A DNA stretch of 64,000 nucleotides from Gammaproteobacteria bacterium (GTDB taxonomy: Bacteria; Pseudomonadota; Gammaproteobacteria; Ga0077536). The DNA is taken from the NCBI GenBank assembly GCA_009692265.1, contig SHZM01000001.1, positions 19,363-83,362 of the forward strand, read 5' to 3'. The notes below the pieces were generated by a model. The model saw only the letters and a list, made by a program, of their open reading frames with translations. It was not told the DNA's origin and did not search any database. Made by a program: the position numbers and the translations under genes. This document shows, in pieces, positions 2,691-19,350 of this stretch; position 1 is the first letter of the stretch, and every line of letters begins with the position of its first letter.

Positions 2691-3134
2691 ATGCTCGATC
2701 GCAAATTCGTTGGCTATACCTCGCCGCCTTGCACTTTGGAGGTCGAAAAAGGCCGGCTGCGCATGTTCGCCCACGCCATCGGCCAAACCGATCCGGTGTA
2801 TTGCGATGAAGCTGCGGCCCAGGCCAGGGGTTACCCTTCGTTACCGGTGCCGCCGACATTTCTATTTTGTTTGGAAATGGATCGACCCGATCCCTACGGC
2901 TGGTTCGACGACGTCGGCATTCCTCTGCCAGAAGTTTTGCACGCCGAGCAAGCGTTCACCTACCATCGGATGGCTTACGCCGGCGATCGCCTCACCTTCC
3001 ATGCGGAGATCACGGACATCTATGCGAAGAAAAATGGACTGCTGGAATTCGTCGTGCAGCTTAATCGCATTACTAACCAGCACGAGGAGCCGGTCGCGGA
3101 ATTTACGCGCACCCTCGTCATTCGCCATGGTTAA
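2691..3134 (+). CDS. MaoC-like dehydratase, N-terminal (FAS1-type/HadA-like) subunit
   Basis: ATG at 2691 after GGAG. The 147 aa protein (FVGYTSPP...DPVYCDEAAA) resembles the N-terminal hot-dog half of two-component (3R)-hydroxyacyl dehydratases. The longer ORF starting at 2346 overlaps the upstream divergent gene and was rejected. Confidence 0.65.
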   Translation: MLDRKFVGYTSPPCTLEVEKGRLRMFAHAIGQTDPVYCDEAAAQARGYPSLPVPPTFLFCLEMDRPDPYGWFDDVGIPLPEVLHAEQAFTYHRMAYAGDRLTFHAEITDIYAKKNGLLEFVVQLNRITNQHEEPVAEFTRTLVIRHG

Positions 3135-3144
3135 GGAATCGCAA

Positions 3145-3564
3145 ATGCCCAACCCCGGTTTCGCCTCCGTTCAAGTCGGGGATTCATTGCCAGCCTTGAC
3201 CGCAAAGCCACTCACTCGCCAAACCCTCGCGGTGTACTGCGGTGCTTCCGGCGATCACAATCCGGTACATGTGGACAGTGATTTCGCGCGCGCGGCCGGG
3301 CTCGATGACGTGATCGCGCACGGCATGCTCATCATGAGCTATATGAGTCGCACCTTGACCGACTGGGTGCCGCAGAACCGCGTCCGTAGCTTCAATACGC
3401 GCTTCATGGCGATCACCCACATCGGCGATGAAATCACTTGCACCGCGAAGGTCGTTGAAAAATTCACCCGCGACGCAGAGAACCTTGTCCGCATCGCGAT
3501 CGCGGCAGCGGATCAACGCGGGGAAGTGAAGACACAGGGCGAGGCATTGATCGCACTGCCCTGA
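3145..3564 (+). CDS. MaoC family dehydratase (HadB-like catalytic subunit)
   Basis: 139 aa. Has the hot-dog motif GDHNPVHVDSDFARAAG...IAHGM. It starts 10 nt after the previous CDS, so the two look like a coupled pair. Confidence 0.75.
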   Translation: MPNPGFASVQVGDSLPALTAKPLTRQTLAVYCGASGDHNPVHVDSDFARAAGLDDVIAHGMLIMSYMSRTLTDWVPQNRVRSFNTRFMAITHIGDEITCTAKVVEKFTRDAENLVRIAIAAADQRGEVKTQGEALIALP

Positions 3565-3588
3565 GGGAATAACAGCGGGAGGGATCGC

Positions 3589-4428
3589 ATGGACAGCAAC
3601 GTGATCACGGACAAGACCATTGGCCAATACCTGATAGATCGCCTGTGCGAAGCCGGTGCCCGTCACTGCTTCGGGGTACCGGGTGATTACATCCTCGGGT
3701 TTTATGATCTGATGGTCCACAGCCAGCTCACCCATATTGACACGACCCGTGAAGACACCGCCGCGTTTGCCGCCGATGGTTATGCCCGGTTATAAGGCTT
3801 GGGCGCGCTCGCCGTAACCTATGGAGTCGGCGCGTTGAACGTCGTGAACGCAGTCGCGGGTGCCTACGCCGAGAATTCGCCGGTGGTAGTGATCAGCGGT
3901 GCGCCCGGCGTTAGCGAAGCCGCCAACGATCCATTACTGCATCATCGCTTCGGGCCGTTCTCATTCCAGCGCGAAATTTTTCAACGCATTACCTGTGCCC
4001 AAGCAGTCTTGGACGATCCGTTGATCGCATTCCGACAAATCGATCGCACCTTGGCCGCCGCCCGGCGGCAGCGATTGCCGGTTTATATTGAGTTACCGCG
4101 TGATCAGGTCCGTGTAGCGGGCTACCCGGTACCGGTGGAGGCCGAGGTGGAGGCGGGTTCCGATCCGGCGACGTTGCGCGAAGCAGTGGATGAATGCTGT
4201 GCCCTATTGGAGAAATGCCAAACGCCGGTCCTGATTGCGGGCCAGGAACTGCATCGCCGCGGCTTGCAAGACGCCCTCATTGAGTTCGTCACGCGCACCA
4301 ACATTCCAACTGCCGCAACCCTGACCGGGAAATCGGTCATTGGCGAACGACATCCGTCGTACCTTGGGGTATATGAAGGCGCGATGAGTTCCGCCGCATC
4401 GCCAAAAAGCTGTTGCTTGATCTCGTAG
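3589..4428 (+). pseudogene. Indolepyruvate/phenylpyruvate decarboxylase family (TPP enzyme) remnant. It has an in-frame TAA at 3793..3795 and is truncated after about 277 of the roughly 550 expected codons.
   Basis: The translation matches the IPDC/PDC N-terminal and middle domains (FGVPGDY...ADGYARL*GLGALAVTYGVGALN...HHRFGP). The stop sits where the family has K/N. Homology ends near 4395-4400, where the antisense of the repeat-protein gene begins. Confidence 0.7.
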
Positions 4429-7334
4429 GTGTTGAAACCAGGTGTGCCGCTAACAGTGTTGTAGTCCGCGTACACCACCACGTAATTGCCCTGGCCGAGA
4501 TCCGCGATTGCGGGGCGATACTCGGTGCCATCAGTGCTCGACAGCAGCTTGCGTTGGCCATCGATCGCGACTCCGGCCGAGGTGTGTTCACGGATGTAGA
4601 CATCCGTGGTCGTGCCGACGTTTGGGATCACATCGTAGTTGTCGTTGTACCAGGTCACGACGAAGCCGCCGGTGGAGAGCGCCGTCACGTCTGGCTGGTA
4701 TTGACCGCCGATGGTCGACTCGTTGACCAGGAACTCGCCGCCGAGCTTGGCACCCGCCGCGGTGAAGCGCTGCCCGATTACCGCCTGACCGCTGTTGTCG
4801 CTGGCATCATTACCATCCGACGGCCATACCACCACGAACGTGCCGTCCGCCAGCACCGCGACGTTCGACACGTACTCGCCATTGTTCGCAATACTCTGGT
4901 TTCCCACCGTGGTGGTGTTGACCAGGAAGGTGTCGCCAAAGGTCCCACCCGCCGCGTTGAAGATCCGGCCATACACGCCGTGGCCCGCGCCGTCGTTACC
5001 GCCCTCGTCGGACCATACGATGATGAGATTGCCGTTCGCGAACGCCGCTATATCCGGGGTGTACTGGTTGCCGGTTTGGGGGTTTACCGTGCCGAGAATA
5101 TTGCTAATCCGGGTCTCGACCGTGACCACGGCCCCCGCGTTGTCGTAACGCTTCAAGTAGATGTCGTGGCTGCTACCGTCCGGATTCGTGTTTGACGACC
5201 ACACCGCCGCAAAGCCGCCCGCGTAGCCCGCGACATTGGTGTGGAACTGGTTATTGCTGGTGAACGTGTTGACCAGGAAGTTCCCACCCTGCGCCACGCC
5301 GCTCGCGTTGTAGCGCTGACCATACGCGCCGTAGGACGAACCATCGTTCAGATTGTCCTGTCACGCGACGACATAGCCGCCATCGGAGAGGCTCGCGAGC
5401 TGCGGGTAGTTCTGAATTCCGTTGGTCAGACTATTGACCCGGAATTCAGCGCCTAGCGCGAGACCCTGCGCGGTAAAACGCTGGACGTAGACGCCTTCCT
5501 GATTGCCGTCCTGGTCATCCGAATTCCAGGCCACGACATAACTGCCATCCGTTAAGGTTGCCACCGTCGGATAGGTCTGTTCAGCTGGCGTGTACGTGGT
5601 GACCTGGCTCTCACCGTAGACTACCGGTGCGCCATCCAGTTCCTTGGTGATATTCACCGTCAAGGTGCTGGCATCGCTGACTCCGCCGTCGCCGTCGCTG
5701 ACCCGTAGGCCCAGGGTCCGGCTAGCCAGCGGACTGGACGATGAATTGCCATAACCCAGGCGTTGCAGCGGGGCCTCGACCGCATCCACCGTCGCATTCG
5801 CATTCAACGTGATCGTGAGGCTCGCGCCGTTGACCCCGCCGGCGATTGTGCCGATCGTCGTACCGCCAAAACTGACATTCGCGCCCGCCACCCCGATCTG
5901 GCCAAAGCCGTTGCCCTGATGGACTACGCCGAGTTGGTCGTCGGTATTATTCGCGCCCTGTACGAAGAACAACTGCACCTGGCCGCCGTCGAAGTTCGCC
6001 GAATCCAGATCCGCGACGCTGACCGCGGAATCGAGCACTTGCAGGCTCGCGTTGACCAGGTTCTCGCCGAAGGTGACCACCCCGGCGAAGTCCCCGACGT
6101 CTGGGTTGGCTTGACGGGGTAGTTCGGCGGCAGTGCCGAACAATTGCTGGAAGATGCCTGCCGCAGAGCCGTCCTGCGGTTGATCAGAGCGCCACACCAC
6201 CACATAGTTATCGCTGCCGATGTGCGCGATCGCGGGCTCGTATTGAGCCCCGGAGGGCGTCCCCGTATCGGCCTTAAGTTGGCCACCCAGCGCGTTCCCG
6301 CTGGCGTCATATTCGCGAACGTAGACGTCGGCGGTGGTGCCTACCCCTTGAACCACGCCGTAGTTATCGTTGTACCAGGTGACAACAAAGCCGCCATTCG
6401 CCAAGGCTTCCACATCGGGCTGGTACTGGCCGCCGGTCGTCGATTCATTGACCCGAAATTCGCCGCCATCTAGCGCACCGGCTGCCGTATAACGCTGACC
6501 GTAGACCCCGGCACTGGACCCGTCTTGGTTATCGGAGCGCCAGACCACGACAAATCCGCCACCGGTGAGAAGCGCGACCTTCGGTTCGTACTGGGGACCC
6601 GTGACGAATGTATTGACGCGGAATTCGTTGACCCCGCCGGTGAGGATGGGCGTCCCCGTGGCGTCATAGCGCTGGGCGTAGACGCCATCGGTCCCGCTAT
6701 CTTGGGACTGCGATCGCCACACCACCACAAAGCTGCCGTCTGCGGCGGTTGCTACATCGGATTCAGTTTGGTAGTTGGCGAGGGTGGTATTAACCCGGAA
6801 TTCGTTGAGGCCATTGGTGAGCACCTGGACACCGGCATTGGTGTAGCGCTGCGCGTAAATGCCGTAGGAGCTGCTGGCCGCGTCCTGGAAGGAACTCCAG
6901 GTAACGATGAAGCCGCCGTTGTACGCACTGATGGCCGGTTCGTACTGGGTACTGGCGGTGATGGTGTTGACTCTGAACTGACTGCCCTGGGGCAGCGCGT
7001 TGGCGTCGTAGGCTTGCGCGTAGACCCCGTAGGAACTGCCGTCATTCGCGACTTGATCGGTCCACGTAATGACGAAGCCGCCGTTTGAGCGCCCGGTGAT
7101 AGTCGGTAGATACTGCGTGCCACCTGCAGTGCTATTAACCCGAAACTCCGGGCCGGTGGCGATGCCGCTCACCGTAAAGCGCTGCGCGTAGATGCCGTAG
7201 CTACCATCCGGATCCTGAACCTGGGAGATCCAGGTCACCACATACCCGCCCCCTGAGAGCGCCGCAACCGCGGGGTCATATTGGTTGCTATTGAAATAGG
7301 TATTGACTTGGTCTTCGTTATAGACGGCAACCAT
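4122..7334 (-). pseudogene. Giant tandem-repeat (about 47-aa repeats, likely extracellular) protein gene. It is interrupted by an in-frame TGA at 5361..5363, and its 3' end is lost: the frame reads into antisense of the IPDC-like remnant below about 4400.
   Basis: ORFs 5361..7334 and 4122..5297 are in the same frame (7334-5297 = 2037 = 679x3). The TGA replaces the Trp of the repeat consensus GG(F/Y)VV(T/V/A)W. About 15 repeats fit EFRVN.T..GxQ..P.V..L..GGFVVxWxS...DGS..GVYAQRY. The final stretch below 4400 has no repeat signature. Confidence 0.7.
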
Positions 7335-7859
7335 GGCGATCTCCCTGAGTGTTAAAACGGCGTGCTGCGTTCAATCCGGCGCAGGCCAGTATGCAAACGG
7401 TTGGTGAAGGTGGCGTGACGAGCTTACGGGAGACATGCGCGCCCGTGACGGTAATGGGTCTCGTTTGCGACCGTGCCTGAAAGTTGGATAGCCTTAGTGA
7501 TCGAGTACGAGTCACTATTCCTCCAAATTATTGGTTCTTCGATTCCTCCGGAATGTTCACGCGAATAGCATTCCGGGCAGCAGCGAACGCCGCGAAGGCG
7601 GAGTTCCGCGATAACCTATGCAAGACCAACGCCAGTCCGAGCGGGACGGAATTTTTCACCGAAAATCATAGGGTTAGCGAGAGCCCGAAATTTGTTTCAA
7701 AACGAGTTGTAAAAATCATGGACACGGAAGCCTGCGGGCGGGTTTCATCGGTGATCGCAAGCGACGAGTTTTTTTAGACGCTTCAAAGGGTTGGTGAAAG
7801 ATGCTCGGCAATAGCGGGCATATTACCGAGTCTATGATTTTTACAAGGATGTGGGTGAA

Positions 7860-7905
7860 TCCATCCTCCCCCTTTGCGAAGGGGGACTGAGGGGGATTTT
7901 CTTTC
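7860..7905 (-). repeat. REP/MITE-like GC-rich hairpin element (copy A, reverse orientation)
   Basis: Its reverse complement AAGAAAATCCCCCTCAGTCCCCCTTCGCAAAGGGGGAGGA shares a 25-nt identical core with copies at 10894 and 19254. It lies immediately 3' of the M14 gene that ends at 7907. Confidence 0.75.
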
Positions 7906-7906
7906 G

Positions 7907-9325
7907 TTACTCCACCTCGTCATAAATAAACAATGGGCCTTCGAGCAAACGACCGAAGGGGCGATAGCGAAACACGCTGCTCGCGGCACGCGGATCCAGC
8001 AGGAGTGGAATTATCCTTCGGCTCGGTTGCGCCAGAGGTATTCGCAGGGTACCTGGGTCGAGCACAACCTTGCCTGCCCACGGTTGCCAAGGCGAAGCGG
8101 CCTCCTCGGGTGAAATCCCTTTTGGGAACACTCGTGTCTGCACGCTTCGTCGCTCCGCGCGCGAAATAGTTTCGAATTTGATCCCGTGTCGTGCCAACAC
8201 CGCGCCGAACAAATTCACATGCGCGTTGATGACATACGCAGGCGGCAGGACAACCAGATCTTCGATCACGCAGGCACGGTGATCGGCAAACTGCCTCTCG
8301 ACTAACTCTCCAGTCGCATGCCGACGTAGCGGTATGCTGAGTTCCGGCATGTTTACGTTCGGCACGAAACGCGCGTTTAACGGGAGTTCACTTGGCACCT
8401 CACCGGCCGCGAGCTTAAGGACTTCTCTGATTTGCACTGCGCGTTCACTCACACAGGCCAAAAACACCTGCAAACACAGACGCTGCTTATCGACTCGCAC
8501 GCCGATATTGCGGTAGGTCGGATAGTGGCCCGCTTTGGGTTCCATCGGCGTTTCGAGCAGGATAGTCAGCGGCCCGCGGATCCCCGCTTTATTGCGGAAC
8601 TTGCGGATCGTGAAGCCGCCATGGGTGAGCGGTTGAGTGAGCGAGGTAATCTCACGGATATAACGCTGGGCGCGTAAGCCGCGCTGCGTAACACCTGCGA
8701 TTAAGGCCGGAAGTAACGTGCTTTCCAGATAGCGGCGGTTCACCGCCGGAATTGCCGGTGTATTCGCCACATCGAACTGCGCTTCGAAATCCGTCAAGTA
8801 ACCTTCGCGACCTAAAGTCTTGCTCTTGTAACTCGCCGACTCATGCGCATCGAGGATGACATCGGGCGCGAAATCGATCACCGCCGCATCGAGTGCGCAA
8901 CTCTCGGGCTGCGTCAGTAAGACATAGTCGCGATTGAGATTGACGTCGTTGCCGTTCTTGCTTGAATCGAGATCACGGCCGTCGGGGTTCGCGTTGGGAA
9001 TGAAGATCAGTTCCAGATCCTCAAGCAGTTCGCGCCGCTCGCCGAGCAGCACGTCGCGTGCGAGAAATAATAGCGCTTCACAGCCCGCCGCTTCCGAAGC
9101 GCCATGTTGCGAGCCGACCAGCATGACTCGCAGTTTCGCGGTGCGAAGCGGCTGCGCGCAAATCAAGGCCTGGAGTGGACGCCCCTGGGCTGAGCGCCCA
9201 AGGGTTTGCAGACGGGCAACCTTCGGCGCAAGCGCCGCGAGTTGTGCCAAATAGGCCGCGACGTCAGCCGAACTCGAATACGCCTGGAAACGCTGCGTTT
9301 CGAGCGGCGTCGGCGGTAGCTTCAC
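7907..9325 (-). CDS. M14 family zinc metallocarboxypeptidase (paralog 1, no signal peptide)
   Basis: 472 aa. M14 motifs present: GSQHGASEAAG (HxxE zinc site), IPNANPDGR, NLNRDY, DAHESAS, LETPME. The GTG start at 9325 overlaps the stop of the upstream paralog (GTGA). Confidence 0.75.
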   Translation of the reverse strand: MKLPPTPLETQRFQAYSSSADVAAYLAQLAALAPKVARLQTLGRSAQGRPLQALICAQPLRTAKLRVMLVGSQHGASEAAGCEALLFLARDVLLGERRELLEDLELIFIPNANPDGRDLDSSKNGNDVNLNRDYVLLTQPESCALDAAVIDFAPDVILDAHESASYKSKTLGREGYLTDFEAQFDVANTPAIPAVNRRYLESTLLPALIAGVTQRGLRAQRYIREITSLTQPLTHGGFTIRKFRNKAGIRGPLTILLETPMEPKAGHYPTYRNIGVRVDKQRLCLQVFLACVSERAVQIREVLKLAAGEVPSELPLNARFVPNVNMPELSIPLRRHATGELVERQFADHRACVIEDLVVLPPAYVINAHVNLFGAVLARHGIKFETISRAERRSVQTRVFPKGISPEEAASPWQPWAGKVVLDPGTLRIPLAQPSRRIIPLLLDPRAASSVFRYRPFGRLLEGPLFIYDEVE

Positions 9326-10884
9326 CGGAGGCGACGCGTCGCGCCTTTGTATGTGCGATAGACGAAGAAATCTTCCTCCGGTTGCACCAGCGCGGAATAC
9401 TCTGGGTAGCGAAAGATGCTGCTGGTCGAGCGCGGATCCAGCAATAACGCCGCGTAGCGTCCGTTGGGTTGCGTGAGATCGATGAACACACCGCCGGGTT
9501 CGATCTCGAGTGCGCGACGGTTTTCTGAAGTCATCTTCACTTGGTCGAGAATATTTGGCCGGCTCTCAAAACGCGCGGCGATGACGTCCGCGCTGGTGGG
9601 CTGGGTCAGACTCCAAAAACTAATGCCATGTCGTTCGAGCACATCGCGCAGCTTACCCACGTGTTGAGTGATGACCAGCATCGGCGGATAGGGGATCCGG
9701 TCGCCGGTCACCAGCTTTCGATGATCACGAAATTCAATCGACTCCAATTCGCGGGTATCGAGGCGGCGCATCGGGATTGAGACCTTTGGGTGCTCAGGAT
9801 CGACCACATAACCCGCGAACAAGGTAAGCGGCTCTTTATGCAAACCGCTGCGTGCCTCAACCACGCGGGTTGCGAGGATCGCCCGCCCCTCGTGCATCGA
9901 TTTAAGGAAGGTGCGAATGCACAGCAGCTGCCGCTCGACCCGCACCACGATATTGCGATACGTCGGGTAGGTGTCTTCGCGTGAATCGAGTTTGGTCTCC
10001 ACCAGAAACGAGATCGCGCCGCTCATGCCCGCGGTATTGCGGAAATTGCGCAGGGTCAGACCGCCGTGGGTGATCGGCTGTTTAAGGCTGATGATTTCGC
10101 CGATATAGCGATGCGCGGGCAATCCACCAGCGGTGACCCGTGCAATGAGTTCGGGCAACAAGGTCTGTAGCGCGTAGTCGCGCACCACGGCTGGCACGGA
10201 CGGGTTATTGCTGAATTCAAACTGCGCATCGAAATCGGTTAGGTAACCATCGCGCGCCAGAGTCTTGCGTTTCAGGACTGCGGATTCGTGCGAGTCCAGC
10301 ACGGCAGCGGGTCGATATTTTTCGAGCATGTCCTTGAGGATGCGGGTCTCCGGTTGCGACAGCAGGACAAAGTCGGTGTTGATATTGATGCCGTTGGCGT
10401 TCGCGCGCTTCTTATTATCGCGACCGTCGGGGTTCGCGTTCGGAATCAAAATCACATCGACATCGTCCAACAGCGGACGTAAGTCGCCCGCCACGAGTTC
10501 GCGCGCGATCACTAACAACGCTTCGCCACCTGCCGGCTCGGCGGCACCATGTTGTGAGCCGATCACCACGAGCTTCGGGCGTTTAAGTTCTTTCGATCGC
10601 TTTGTCTTTAAGACCAGGGCCTCGAGCACGCGTCCCTGTACTGACTTGCCGAGGTCGTCTTTACGCGCGAGGGTGGGGTAGTGCGCGACGATGGTGTCCA
10701 AGTACGTGGTGATCTCGGCGGAGGTGCTGATTCGAGAGTTTGCGTTCAGCTCGAGCGGCGTGAGCAGCGGGGGTGCGGCGTTCAGCTGTGAGGTGAACAG
10801 GAGTACCGTGACTAACGAAGGTAGGGTGCCGATTCTTGTGAGGTTGATCATGGTCGGTGTTTTACTCGAATTAATGGGTTTCAT
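9322..10884 (-). CDS. M14 family zinc metallocarboxypeptidase (paralog 2, with signal peptide)
   Basis: Paralog of the previous gene with the same motifs (GSQHGAAEPAGGEA, IPNANPDGRD, NTDFV, DSHESA, FLVETK). The N-terminus MKPINSSKTPTMINLTRIGTLPSLVTVLLFTSQLNAAP is signal-like. An alternative start at 10851 (MINLTR) is possible. The longer track ORF reaching 10968 reads through the REP element and was rejected. Confidence 0.7.
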   Translation of the reverse strand: MKPINSSKTPTMINLTRIGTLPSLVTVLLFTSQLNAAPPLLTPLELNANSRISTSAEITTYLDTIVAHYPTLARKDDLGKSVQGRVLEALVLKTKRSKELKRPKLVVIGSQHGAAEPAGGEALLVIARELVAGDLRPLLDDVDVILIPNANPDGRDNKKRANANGININTDFVLLSQPETRILKDMLEKYRPAAVLDSHESAVLKRKTLARDGYLTDFDAQFEFSNNPSVPAVVRDYALQTLLPELIARVTAGGLPAHRYIGEIISLKQPITHGGLTLRNFRNTAGMSGAISFLVETKLDSREDTYPTYRNIVVRVERQLLCIRTFLKSMHEGRAILATRVVEARSGLHKEPLTLFAGYVVDPEHPKVSIPMRRLDTRELESIEFRDHRKLVTGDRIPYPPMLVITQHVGKLRDVLERHGISFWSLTQPTSADVIAARFESRPNILDQVKMTSENRRALEIEPGGVFIDLTQPNGRYAALLLDPRSTSSIFRYPEYSALVQPEEDFFVYRTYKGATRRLR

Positions 10885-10893
10885 CGACCGAAT

Positions 10894-10962
10894 AAGAAAA
10901 TCCCCCTCAGTCCCCCTTTGACAAAGGGGTCGGCGCGCAGCGGCGGGGGACTTAGCGCGCAG
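10894..10962 (+). repeat. REP/MITE-like element (copy B, forward orientation)
   Basis: AAGAAAATCCCCCTCAGTCCCCCTTTGACAAAGGGGTCGGCGCGCAGCGGCGGGGGAC. It carries the same core as copies A and C. It sits between the bclA stop and the M14 paralog-2 start. Confidence 0.75.
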
Positions 10963-10967
10963 ATTCA

Positions 10968-12542
10968 CTACCCCGCCCGCAATCTGAACCGCTGAATCTT
11001 GCCGGTCGCCGTTTTCGGAAGCTCTGGGACAAATTCAAACCAGCGCGGGTACTTGTGTGGCGCAAGCTGCGTTTTCACATGCGCCTTCAATGCTGCTTCC
11101 AATTTCGGCACTCCGTGGCCCTTGCTCTTCAATACGACAAATGCTTTCGGTTTGATCAATCCCTCCGCGTCCGCCATGCCGACCACCGCCGCTTCGAGCA
11201 CGGCTGGGTGTGACATCAGCGCGGCTTCGACTTCGAACGGTGAAACGTATTGGCCGCTGACTTTGAGCATGTCGTCAGAGCGCCCACCGTAGGTGTAGTA
11301 GCCCTCCGCGTCGACCGTGTATTTATCACCCGCGCGGGTCCATGCGCCCATAAAGGTTTCACGCGATTTCTCGCGACTGTTCCAATACATCACGGCCGTG
11401 CTCGGACCGTTGATCTGGAGTTCGCCCAGACCAGGTCCCGTAATTTCTTGGCCTTGCTCATCGCACAGCCGGATTTGATAACCCGGGACGGGTTTACCCG
11501 TCGTACCGTAACGCACGTCGCCAGGCCGGTTCGATAAAAAAATATGCAACATCTCGGTCGAACCAATGCCGTCGAGGATGTCCACTCCAAAGTGGGCGGT
11601 AAAGCGTCGCCCGACGTCGGCGGGCAGCGCTTCACCCGCTGAGGTGCAGATCCGTAACGCGACTGTCGAGCGCTCGGGTAACCTTGGGCTCGCGAGCATC
11701 GCGGCATAGAGCGTCGGTACCCCGTAGAAAATCGACGGCTGCAAGTCGACCAGGCGTTTGAACACCGCCTCCGGGGTTGGCCGCTCGGCCATCAAGATCG
11801 CAGTGGCGCCAACCGCCAACGGGAACGTCAGGCTATTGCCTAGGCCATAGGCGAAAAATAATTTCGCGGCCGAGAACACCACATCCTGTTCAGTAATCCC
11901 GAGAATAGGACGTGCATACAGCTCAGCGGTGTGAAGCAAGCTCGAATGCACATGCACCGTACCCTTCGGGGGGCCGGTCGAACCGGAGGAGTACAGCCAG
12001 AAGCACACCTCACCCGCCGTGGTGTCGACCGGCTCGGCGGTGGGCTCGGCGGCCGCCATTAACTGGCCTAACACGGGATATCCATGTGCACCGGCCGTGG
12101 CAATAACATGCTTCAGCGATCGTGCTTCCGCGAGCGCCGGTGCAAACGTTTCCAGCAACGGTGCGGAAACGAACAGGGCTTTCGCGCAACTGTCGTCGAG
12201 CATGAAGCGGTAATCATCGCTGGTTAGCAGGGTATTCACCGCGATCGGTACGATCCCGGCTTTGATAGCGCCCAGGAACACGCTTGGAAAATCGATCGTG
12301 TCGTGTAGCGCGACCATAACCCGATCTTCGGGTTCAAGACCAAGCGCGCGCAGCGCATTGGCGGCACGATTCACGCGCGCGACTAGTTCGCCGTAAGAAT
12401 ACCGGCCGGCGTCATCGATATATGCGATTTTTTCGGCGCGGCCCGCCCGTAGGTTTCGTTCCAGGAGGTCATGCGCGGCGTTATAGCGACGCGGAATTTC
12501 AATCAACGGTGGCGAGACCGTGTGGTCGGCGCGAGACAACAT
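10968..12542 (-). CDS. bclA: Benzoate-CoA ligase family (aromatic acid:CoA ligase)
   Basis: 524 aa adenylate-forming enzyme with YSSGSTGPPKG, GTTGKP and a C-terminal ...KTATGKIQR. Length and motifs match the benzoate/4-hydroxybenzoate-CoA ligase family. It neighbours boxR/boxC/boxB. Confidence 0.8.
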   Translation of the reverse strand: MLSRADHTVSPPLIEIPRRYNAAHDLLERNLRAGRAEKIAYIDDAGRYSYGELVARVNRAANALRALGLEPEDRVMVALHDTIDFPSVFLGAIKAGIVPIAVNTLLTSDDYRFMLDDSCAKALFVSAPLLETFAPALAEARSLKHVIATAGAHGYPVLGQLMAAAEPTAEPVDTTAGEVCFWLYSSGSTGPPKGTVHVHSSLLHTAELYARPILGITEQDVVFSAAKLFFAYGLGNSLTFPLAVGATAILMAERPTPEAVFKRLVDLQPSIFYGVPTLYAAMLASPRLPERSTVALRICTSAGEALPADVGRRFTAHFGVDILDGIGSTEMLHIFLSNRPGDVRYGTTGKPVPGYQIRLCDEQGQEITGPGLGELQINGPSTAVMYWNSREKSRETFMGAWTRAGDKYTVDAEGYYTYGGRSDDMLKVSGQYVSPFEVEAALMSHPAVLEAAVVGMADAEGLIKPKAFVVLKSKGHGVPKLEAALKAHVKTQLAPHKYPRWFEFVPELPKTATGKIQRFRLRAG

Positions 12543-19253: not shown

Positions 19254-19350
19254 AAGAAAATCCCCCTCAATCCCCCTTTTTCGAAGGGGGAGGACTACCG
19301 ACTCACCCCCTTTGAAAAAGGGGGTCATCGCGCAGCGGCGGGGATTTTTC
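19254..19350 (+). repeat. REP/MITE-like element, full-length copy C with about 9-bp terminal inverted repeats (AAAATCCCC ... GGGGATTTT) and two internal hairpins. It lies between convergent genes and is a probable bidirectional terminator.
   Basis: AAGAAAATCCCCCTCAATCCCCCTTTTTCGAAGGGGGAGG...TCACCCCCTTTGAAAAAGGGGGTCATCGCGCAGCGGCGGGGATTTTTC. It shares both modules with copies A and B. It starts 16 nt after the mtd-like stop and abuts the aldolase stop at 19350. Confidence 0.75.

Follow-up and report, generated by a model that had tools for sequence, protein, structure and literature searches.

Convergent remnants of a decarboxylase-like gene and a giant propeller-repeat gene probably mark a genomic scar in a variable locus of a Lake Baikal gammaproteobacterium

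The window analyzed here is a stretch of 64,000 nt from contig SHZM01000001.1 of a metagenome-assembled genome (MAG) assigned to a Gammaproteobacteria bacterium (GCA_009692265.1), and our subject is the segment from 3589 to 7334 in which the remnants of two genes meet tail to tail. The plus strand carries the 5' part of a gene for a thiamine diphosphate (TPP) enzyme related to indolepyruvate decarboxylase (IPDC) and phenylpyruvate decarboxylase (PPDC), referred to below as the IPDC remnant, and the minus strand carries the 5' part of a giant gene for a modular repeat protein. Each remnant contains one in-frame stop codon and each lacks its 3' end. A first-pass annotation of this DNA had recognized both the junction and the two stops, and had proposed a deletion or recombination scar followed by decay, with a chimeric assembly as the alternative. 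The features of the segment, in window coordinates, are as follows.

3589..4392, plus strand: pseudogene of an IPDC/PPDC-like TPP decarboxylase of about 540 codons, of which codons 1-268 remain and specify the PYR domain together with half the middle domain
3793..3795, plus strand: in-frame TAA that interrupts the IPDC remnant at codon 69, between the conserved motifs ADGYAR and GxGA
4393..4428, plus strand: continuation of the IPDC frame without family resemblance (AASPKSCCLIS), which runs antisense to the giant gene and ends at TAG 4426-4428
4386..4393, no strand assigned: breakpoint, 6-8 nt (GAGTTCCG) that fit both parents, placed by codon-by-codon mapping and DNA comparison
4122..4385, minus strand: read-through tail of the giant-gene frame to TAG 4122-4124, antisense to IPDC and without family homology
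4386..7334, minus strand: 5' remnant (983 codons) of the giant modular repeat-protein gene, recognized by homology to proteins P0122-P0133
6135..7334, minus strand: module A, a seven-bladed beta-propeller (residues 1 to about 400) with seven W-motifs spaced 55-61 aa
5631..6134, minus strand: inter-propeller beta-sandwich domain of about 165 aa (AlphaFold2 pLDDT 88.8)
4386..5630, minus strand: module B, a second seven-bladed propeller, severed right past its closing strand (QQLFGDAAEL)
5361..5363, minus strand: in-frame TGA in blade 2 of module B in place of the motif Trp (TGG to TGA), located by blade-motif alignment

Pfam searches of the IPDC remnant recovered the N-terminal PYR domain (PF02776, TPP_enzyme_N; residues 10-112, E=1.5e-30) and an incomplete middle domain, PF00205 (TPP_enzyme_M) being matched over profile positions 1-71 of 137 only, and returned no match in the remnant to PF02775 (TPP_enzyme_C), the C-terminal PP domain that binds the TPP diphosphate and Mg. 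The top NCBIfam model is TIGR03394 (indolepyruvate/phenylpyruvate decarboxylase; positions 4-256 of 535, E=1.6e-59), matched at 202 bits, far below its equivalog cut-off of 554.5 bits, while the nearest solved structure is 2NXW, the PPDC of Azospirillum brasilense (E=7.6e-51). Alignment with this family, which also includes the Enterobacter cloacae IPDC (1OVM), extends end to end through the PYR domain and the first half of the middle one, whereas the window copy retains 268 of about 540 codons, has a stop at codon 69, and is devoid of a PP domain. By homology the remnant derives from the IPDC/PPDC family without being a working member of it, the substrate of its clade being only putative, and its product is predicted to be unable to work because the TPP/Mg-binding PP domain is gone. 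IPDC orthologues with a cleanly delimited open reading frame (ORF) are 541-552 aa long; the window holds no uninterrupted ORF of about 540 aa, and about 270 C-terminal codons are missing from it.

The closest relatives of the IPDC remnant (P0001, L017 and L065) are 85-87% identical to it in amino acid sequence. The in-frame TAA at 3793-3795 had been described as replacing a conserved Lys/Asn after ADGYAR; the stop is present, but the site is not a conserved Lys/Asn. The corresponding residue among 120 homologues is Arg in 79, Asn in 14, His in 12, Lys in 6, Gln in 4, Leu in 3, and Pro and Ser in 1 each, and the codon is CAG (Gln) in L003 and L065, two relatives at 85-87% identity whose DNA aligns there. 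Homology to the family reaches its limit at 4391-4393 (codon 268), and blastn against L003, an 85%-identical relative, ends at 4391. The earlier description of an end to the family match holds, while its position, given as about 4395, is better placed at a breakpoint of 4386-4393. An apparent continuation of IPDC homology up to 4569 was rejected as a tblastn extension artefact that contains three stops.

A relative-rate count gave 9.3 lineage-unique changes in the IPDC remnant versus 7.9 in its sisters, with 5 versus 4 changes at 123 otherwise invariant columns, and accelerated evolution or old decay of the remnant was rejected on this basis. No frameshifts were found in either the IPDC or the giant-gene remnant. 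Because there is neither an excess of amino acid change in the IPDC remnant nor any frameshift, the comparison points to an inactivation that is recent when set against the divergence in protein sequence, roughly 14%, that separates the window from the nearest relatives.

The giant-gene remnant keeps its start codon, a Shine-Dalgarno-like GGGAGA motif, and an N-terminus that matches those of its homologues, and it is 53-60% identical to P0122-P0133 at high coverage. A search of 5.8 billion proteins returned 4312 homologues, among which 53-60% was the best identity; the best matches are mostly betaproteobacterial (Zoogloea, Rhodocyclaceae and Accumulibacter), and the nearest homologues in the match list are fragments. 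The closest relative with genomic context, situated on a JGI metagenome contig (L005), comprises at least 1319 + 3895 aa, or more than 5200 aa in total, so the stump of 983 codons amounts to less than a fifth of such a gene. The GC content at third codon positions (GC3) is 0.73-0.80 in the stump versus 0.62-0.71 in its neighbours. On L005 (13700-14300) the homologue shifts frame several times within about 300 bp, and its coding sequence is thereby broken up into one ORF of 1319 aa and another that exceeds 3895 aa; these shifts may reflect either another decaying copy or an assembly error in the repeat.

An AlphaFold2 model of module A (pLDDT 86, pTM 0.90) predicts a seven-bladed beta-propeller, for which the top Foldseek match is the propeller of CylK (7FH7; TMq 0.75, E=4.5e-12), with the FoRham1 lyase also matched (7ESK; TMq 0.62, E=6.8e-11). 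What module A shares with the CylK C-terminal domain and with FoRham1 is the fold; at 12-13% identity this is a resemblance of fold only, with no catalytic residues shown as shared. Module A is followed by the inter-propeller domain (ELPRQANP...DGDGG...INVT.ELDG), which gives weak cohesin/cadherin-like structural matches (best E=3e-3, TM 0.35-0.45), and after module B the gene is severed at the first residues of that same domain. No Pfam or NCBIfam model matched the blade or the inter-propeller domain above threshold, the sole sub-threshold hint being NF053835, 'PDIAV motif-containing lipoprotein' (25.5 bits against a cut-off of 90). The models depict a family of about 4300 homologues in which seven-bladed propellers are predicted to alternate with beta-sandwich domains of about 165 aa, and several of the more distant homologues carry RTX (PF00353), cadherin or VCBS domains. 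By architecture the giant protein resembles giant secreted or surface adhesins: with the 'large repetitive proteins' of RTX, cadherin and VCBS type it shares tandem propeller and Ig-like beta-sandwich modules as well as homologues that reach thousands of residues, and it differs from them in that its modules have no Pfam or NCBIfam model and the window copy is a stump of 983 codons. No N-terminal signal peptide was apparent in the giant protein when judged by eye.

The TGA at 5361-5363 occupies the final position of the motif G-G-[FY]-V-V-x-W, where 12 of the 14 blades have Trp, one has Tyr and one has the stop, and homologues of the giant gene carry Trp at this position, in agreement with the first-pass description of a stop in place of a consensus Trp. 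Family homology ends at 4386, directly past QQLFGDAAEL; after QQLFGxxAEL all homologues, and module A of the window gene itself, go on with PRQANP..DF.G.V.F.EN. From this point the frame simply runs on through antisense IPDC to the TAG at 4122-4124, as had been noted, and the last 88 codons of the resulting 391-aa ORF (4122..5297, minus strand) are antisense IPDC without homology. With everything past the second propeller module gone, the giant protein product is predicted to be incapable of function.

At the breakpoint the two homologies overlap by 6-8 nt at GAGTTCCG, whose codons read M-S-S-(E) for IPDC on the plus strand and (A)-E-L for the giant gene on the minus strand, and which is compatible with both parents if synonymous differences are allowed. 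The parents were judged here from L003 and from the paralogous module-A boundary at 6099-6149. No long repeat touching the junction was found. Searches of the 64-kb window by tblastn with IPDC homologues, the TPP_C domain of related locus L064, the blade and the linker revealed no reciprocal junction or relocated gene half, nothing being matched outside 3589-7334 and no remnant of the TPP_C domain being recovered (best E-value 0.59).

The junction and both stops are the same in three assemblies (GenBank, Logan and ENA) of Lake Baikal deep-water metagenomes. The Logan assembly of SRR8561391, a sample from 1350 m in Lake Baikal (PRJNA521725; bioRxiv 10.1101/2020.04.02.019802), contains a contig of 7205 bp that is identical to window positions 3521-10725 at 7205 of 7205 positions and that spans the junction together with both stops; its termini, at 3521 and 10725, lie away from the junction. 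A 32-kb contig of ENA assembly ERZ1305449 has an identical ORF structure at the locus, and the Logan and ENA records alike contain exact residue matches to the 391-aa ORF that crosses the junction and to the 68-aa ORF that ends at the TAA.

On the IPDC side, the segment is flanked by APH (minus), PNPOx (minus; 2087-2623), MaoC1 (plus) and MaoC2 (plus), and on the giant-gene side by M14a (minus; 7907-9325), M14b (minus) and an AMP-binding AMP-ligase gene (minus). Related loci show the following arrangements of these genes.

State a, L065 (MAG GCA_050740855.1): PNPOx and, divergent from it, an IPDC N-terminus with 86.6% identity to the window and Gln at the stop position
State a, L064 (GCA_050740855.1, on a contig separate from L065): AMP-ligase-M14b-M14a, then 76 bp and a convergent IPDC C-terminal domain
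State b, L017 (MAG GFS_2113): APH-PNPOx, then MaoC1-MaoC2-IPDC at 85-86% identity, the contig ending within IPDC
State b, L003/L004: MaoC2-IPDC only, with IPDC continuing past the breakpoint of the window
State c, L058 and L059-L062: M14a converging directly on MaoC2, IPDC absent
State d, L063: M14a, then 58 bp and PNPOx (96.6% identical), MaoC and IPDC absent

The giant gene is absent from every related locus examined (L003/L004, L017 and L058-L065). The M14a/M14b/AMP-binding side and the MaoC/PNPOx/APH side are immediate neighbours in six related loci (the L058-L064 set), and the flank genes on either side of the 4.3-kb window segment keep their ancestral relative orientation. Because no related locus holds the giant gene, the native layout is taken to be (MaoC1-MaoC2-)IPDC converging on M14a-M14b-AMP-ligase, and the giant gene is not native to the locus. 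With the window included, there are at least five gene-content states, namely IPDC only, MaoC and IPDC, MaoC only, neither, and the giant-gene stump. This comparison indicates that the locus can do without the IPDC (and MaoC) cassette, which was lost repeatedly, that the giant stump is confined to the lineage of the window, and that the stretch between PNPOx and M14a is a local hotspot of gene loss. Genome matches with about 70%-identical IPDC (Methylobacter, Chromatiales and others) showed no synteny, and only L017 was informative on the ancestral layout. On L002 (2583-3800 and downstream), the 70%-identical IPDC homologue P0006 ends at 405 aa, and the unannotated ORFs that follow it on the opposite strand end with one of more than 1960 aa that is tape-measure-like (PF20155); in this other organism the IPDC gene may have been interrupted by a prophage.

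We consider it probable, at roughly 80%, that the segment represents a true scar in the genome, at a variable locus where gene loss has left two recent pseudogenes. Both nonsense codons stand at positions where relatives read sense codons, and both genes are shorter than their intact homologues and lose homology abruptly, which supports the scar with subsequent decay that the first-pass annotation had put forward. Because the giant gene is not native to the locus, a simple deletion between two old neighbours would not account for the arrangement. We infer instead that a complete giant propeller-repeat gene with its own upstream region was acquired just downstream of M14a, probably horizontally, and that an illegitimate, microhomology-mediated recombination or deletion at 4386-4393 (6-8 nt) then joined the two genes. 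This event would have removed at least 80% of the giant gene from its 3' side (by comparison with L005), the intervening sequence and the last approximately 270 IPDC codons, and one GC-to-AT nonsense change per remnant (TGG to TGA; CAG/CAA to TAA) would have occurred before or after it. The higher GC3 and the betaproteobacterial homologues lend modest support to a foreign origin of the giant gene.

Microhomology-mediated (illegitimate) deletions create bacterial pseudogenes, and the arrangement described here would be an ordinary instance of this well-known phenomenon. It has the same single junction, the same 6-8 nt fitting both parents, the same loss of both 3' ends and the same GC-to-AT nonsense mutations, and nothing sets it apart beyond the at least four other gene-content states found in its sisters.

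Several observations weigh against this history. The higher GC3 of the stump could stem from the amino acid composition of the repeat and not from a foreign origin; no relative with a full-length giant gene at the locus was found, which leaves the order of insertion and then deletion conjectural. The microhomology is deduced from paralogous and orthologous sequence and not from the true parental sequences, and the search for the missing gene halves covered only the 64-kb window of the MAG. Finally, the three assemblies are separate as computations and not as DNA preparations, as they appear to go back to the same pair of deep Lake Baikal samples.

This last point bears on the possibility that the contig is chimeric at about 4390, or that the stops are consensus errors of the metagenome, or both. 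The source is a MAG, repeat-rich giant genes are error-prone to assemble, the L005 homologue shows several frameshifts within 300 bp, and all of the assemblies appear to have been built from reads of the same samples. Even so, they agree base for base, the Logan contig does not end at the junction, and the 6-8 nt shared there are far below the k-mer of any assembler. A chimeric contig is moreover unlikely because both flanks are neighbours in related genomes, synteny in six loci not being expected of a random misjoin, and the chimeric assembly allowed for in the first-pass annotation is accordingly disfavoured. An inversion, of which the tail-to-tail junction would be one end and a reciprocal IPDC 3'/giant-gene 3' junction elsewhere the other, seems the least credible of the explanations considered: breakpoints in two genes do yield tail-to-tail fusions of this kind, but the window contains no IPDC C-terminal piece or additional giant-gene piece, and an inversion is excluded in practice because the flanks keep their ancestral relative orientation, M14a-M14b-AMP-ligase facing MaoC/PNPOx/APH as in all relatives.

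A more serious competitor to insertion followed by deletion, though one we regard as doubtful, is a replacement in one step. Here illegitimate recombination would have put a stray 5' fragment of the giant gene, acquired by transformation for instance, in place of the 76-bp spacer and the 3' half of IPDC, and the locus would never have contained the giant gene at full length. The lack of a giant gene in any related locus, the absence from relatives of a counterpart to the 572-bp spacer at 7335-7906, the microhomology at the visible junction and the higher GC3 of the insert would all fit such an event. However, the remnant lies behind M14a in the same orientation and begins with its promoter-proximal region intact, its ribosome-binding motif and its start codon, like an acquired gene that once worked; the gain and later loss of a working gene is a likelier history than the fixation of a fragment without use; and a second junction has not been located. 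The broader proposal of single-step foreign-fragment capture at a deletion-prone locus, and separately of a giant family that could represent a distinct class of surface adhesins, is more speculative again. It is quite improbable that the pieces are still functional, whether through expression of the 657-aa and/or 391-aa ORF as new, shorter proteins or through decoding of the TGA as Trp or its read-through. The 657-aa ORF (propeller, beta-sandwich and 1.3 blades) does keep its start, its Shine-Dalgarno-like motif and one propeller that is confidently predicted to fold, and GenBank lists it as the hypothetical protein EXR86_00135 [MAG of 'Gammaproteobacteria bacterium']. Against this, the stop inside the blade leaves the second propeller incomplete, the 391-aa ORF ends in its 88 antisense codons without homology, and export may depend on the lost C-terminal parts, as suggested by RTX (PF00353) in several of the more distant homologues. 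Recoding of TGA as Trp was rejected because TGA is used as a stop more often than any other codon in the window, where usage follows the standard genetic code: it ends 16 of 32 long ORFs, among them MaoC2, which lies 25 bp upstream of the IPDC start.

The consequences are mainly for annotation: EXR86_00135 (657 aa) and the neighbouring ORFs of 391, 209 and 68 aa are to be annotated as fragments of two pseudogenes, not as genes, and a metabolic reconstruction of the Lake Baikal MAG should give no credit for an indolepyruvate/phenylpyruvate decarboxylase. The locus offers a compact and clear view of gene loss still under way, its sisters displaying the intact state, with IPDC converging on M14a, and three further, more advanced states of loss or variation. 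More broadly, it draws attention to a giant propeller/beta-sandwich family that has no curated domain model.

The region between the giant-gene start and M14a contains two further features.

7335..7906, minus strand: 572-bp spacer from the M14a stop to the giant-gene start, with a lower GC content of 0.51-0.53
7868..7903, minus strand: REP-like palindromic element on the margin of the variable segment, just past the stop of M14a, recognized as a repeat family within the window

The spacer at 7335-7906 found no match in related loci. By this comparison it must presumably hold the other boundary of the lineage-specific segment, and because the 572 bp are without a match in relatives, the M14a-side boundary of the putatively foreign segment cannot be placed within them. 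Small ORFs of the spacer gave no significant Pfam match, Rfam gave no match at E<=0.1 in 3000-11500, and a simple scan of 3400-8000 detected no sigma-70-like promoter. Further copies of the REP-like element, all intergenic, occur at 10894-10929, 19254-19289 and 19288-19323 on the plus strand (AAGAAAATCCCCCTCAGTCCCCCTTTG.CAAAGGGG).

The longest ORF of M14b (9322-10968, minus strand; 548 aa, from a GTG at 10968) overlaps the REP-like element at 10894-10929 and is longer than its relatives, which have 499-509 aa; the true start of M14b probably lies about 40 codons downstream. M14a is 58-68% identical to its relatives in amino acid sequence and is much more diverged than the neighbouring PNPOx (78-97%), APH (72-81%) and AMP-ligase (74-83%) from the same loci.

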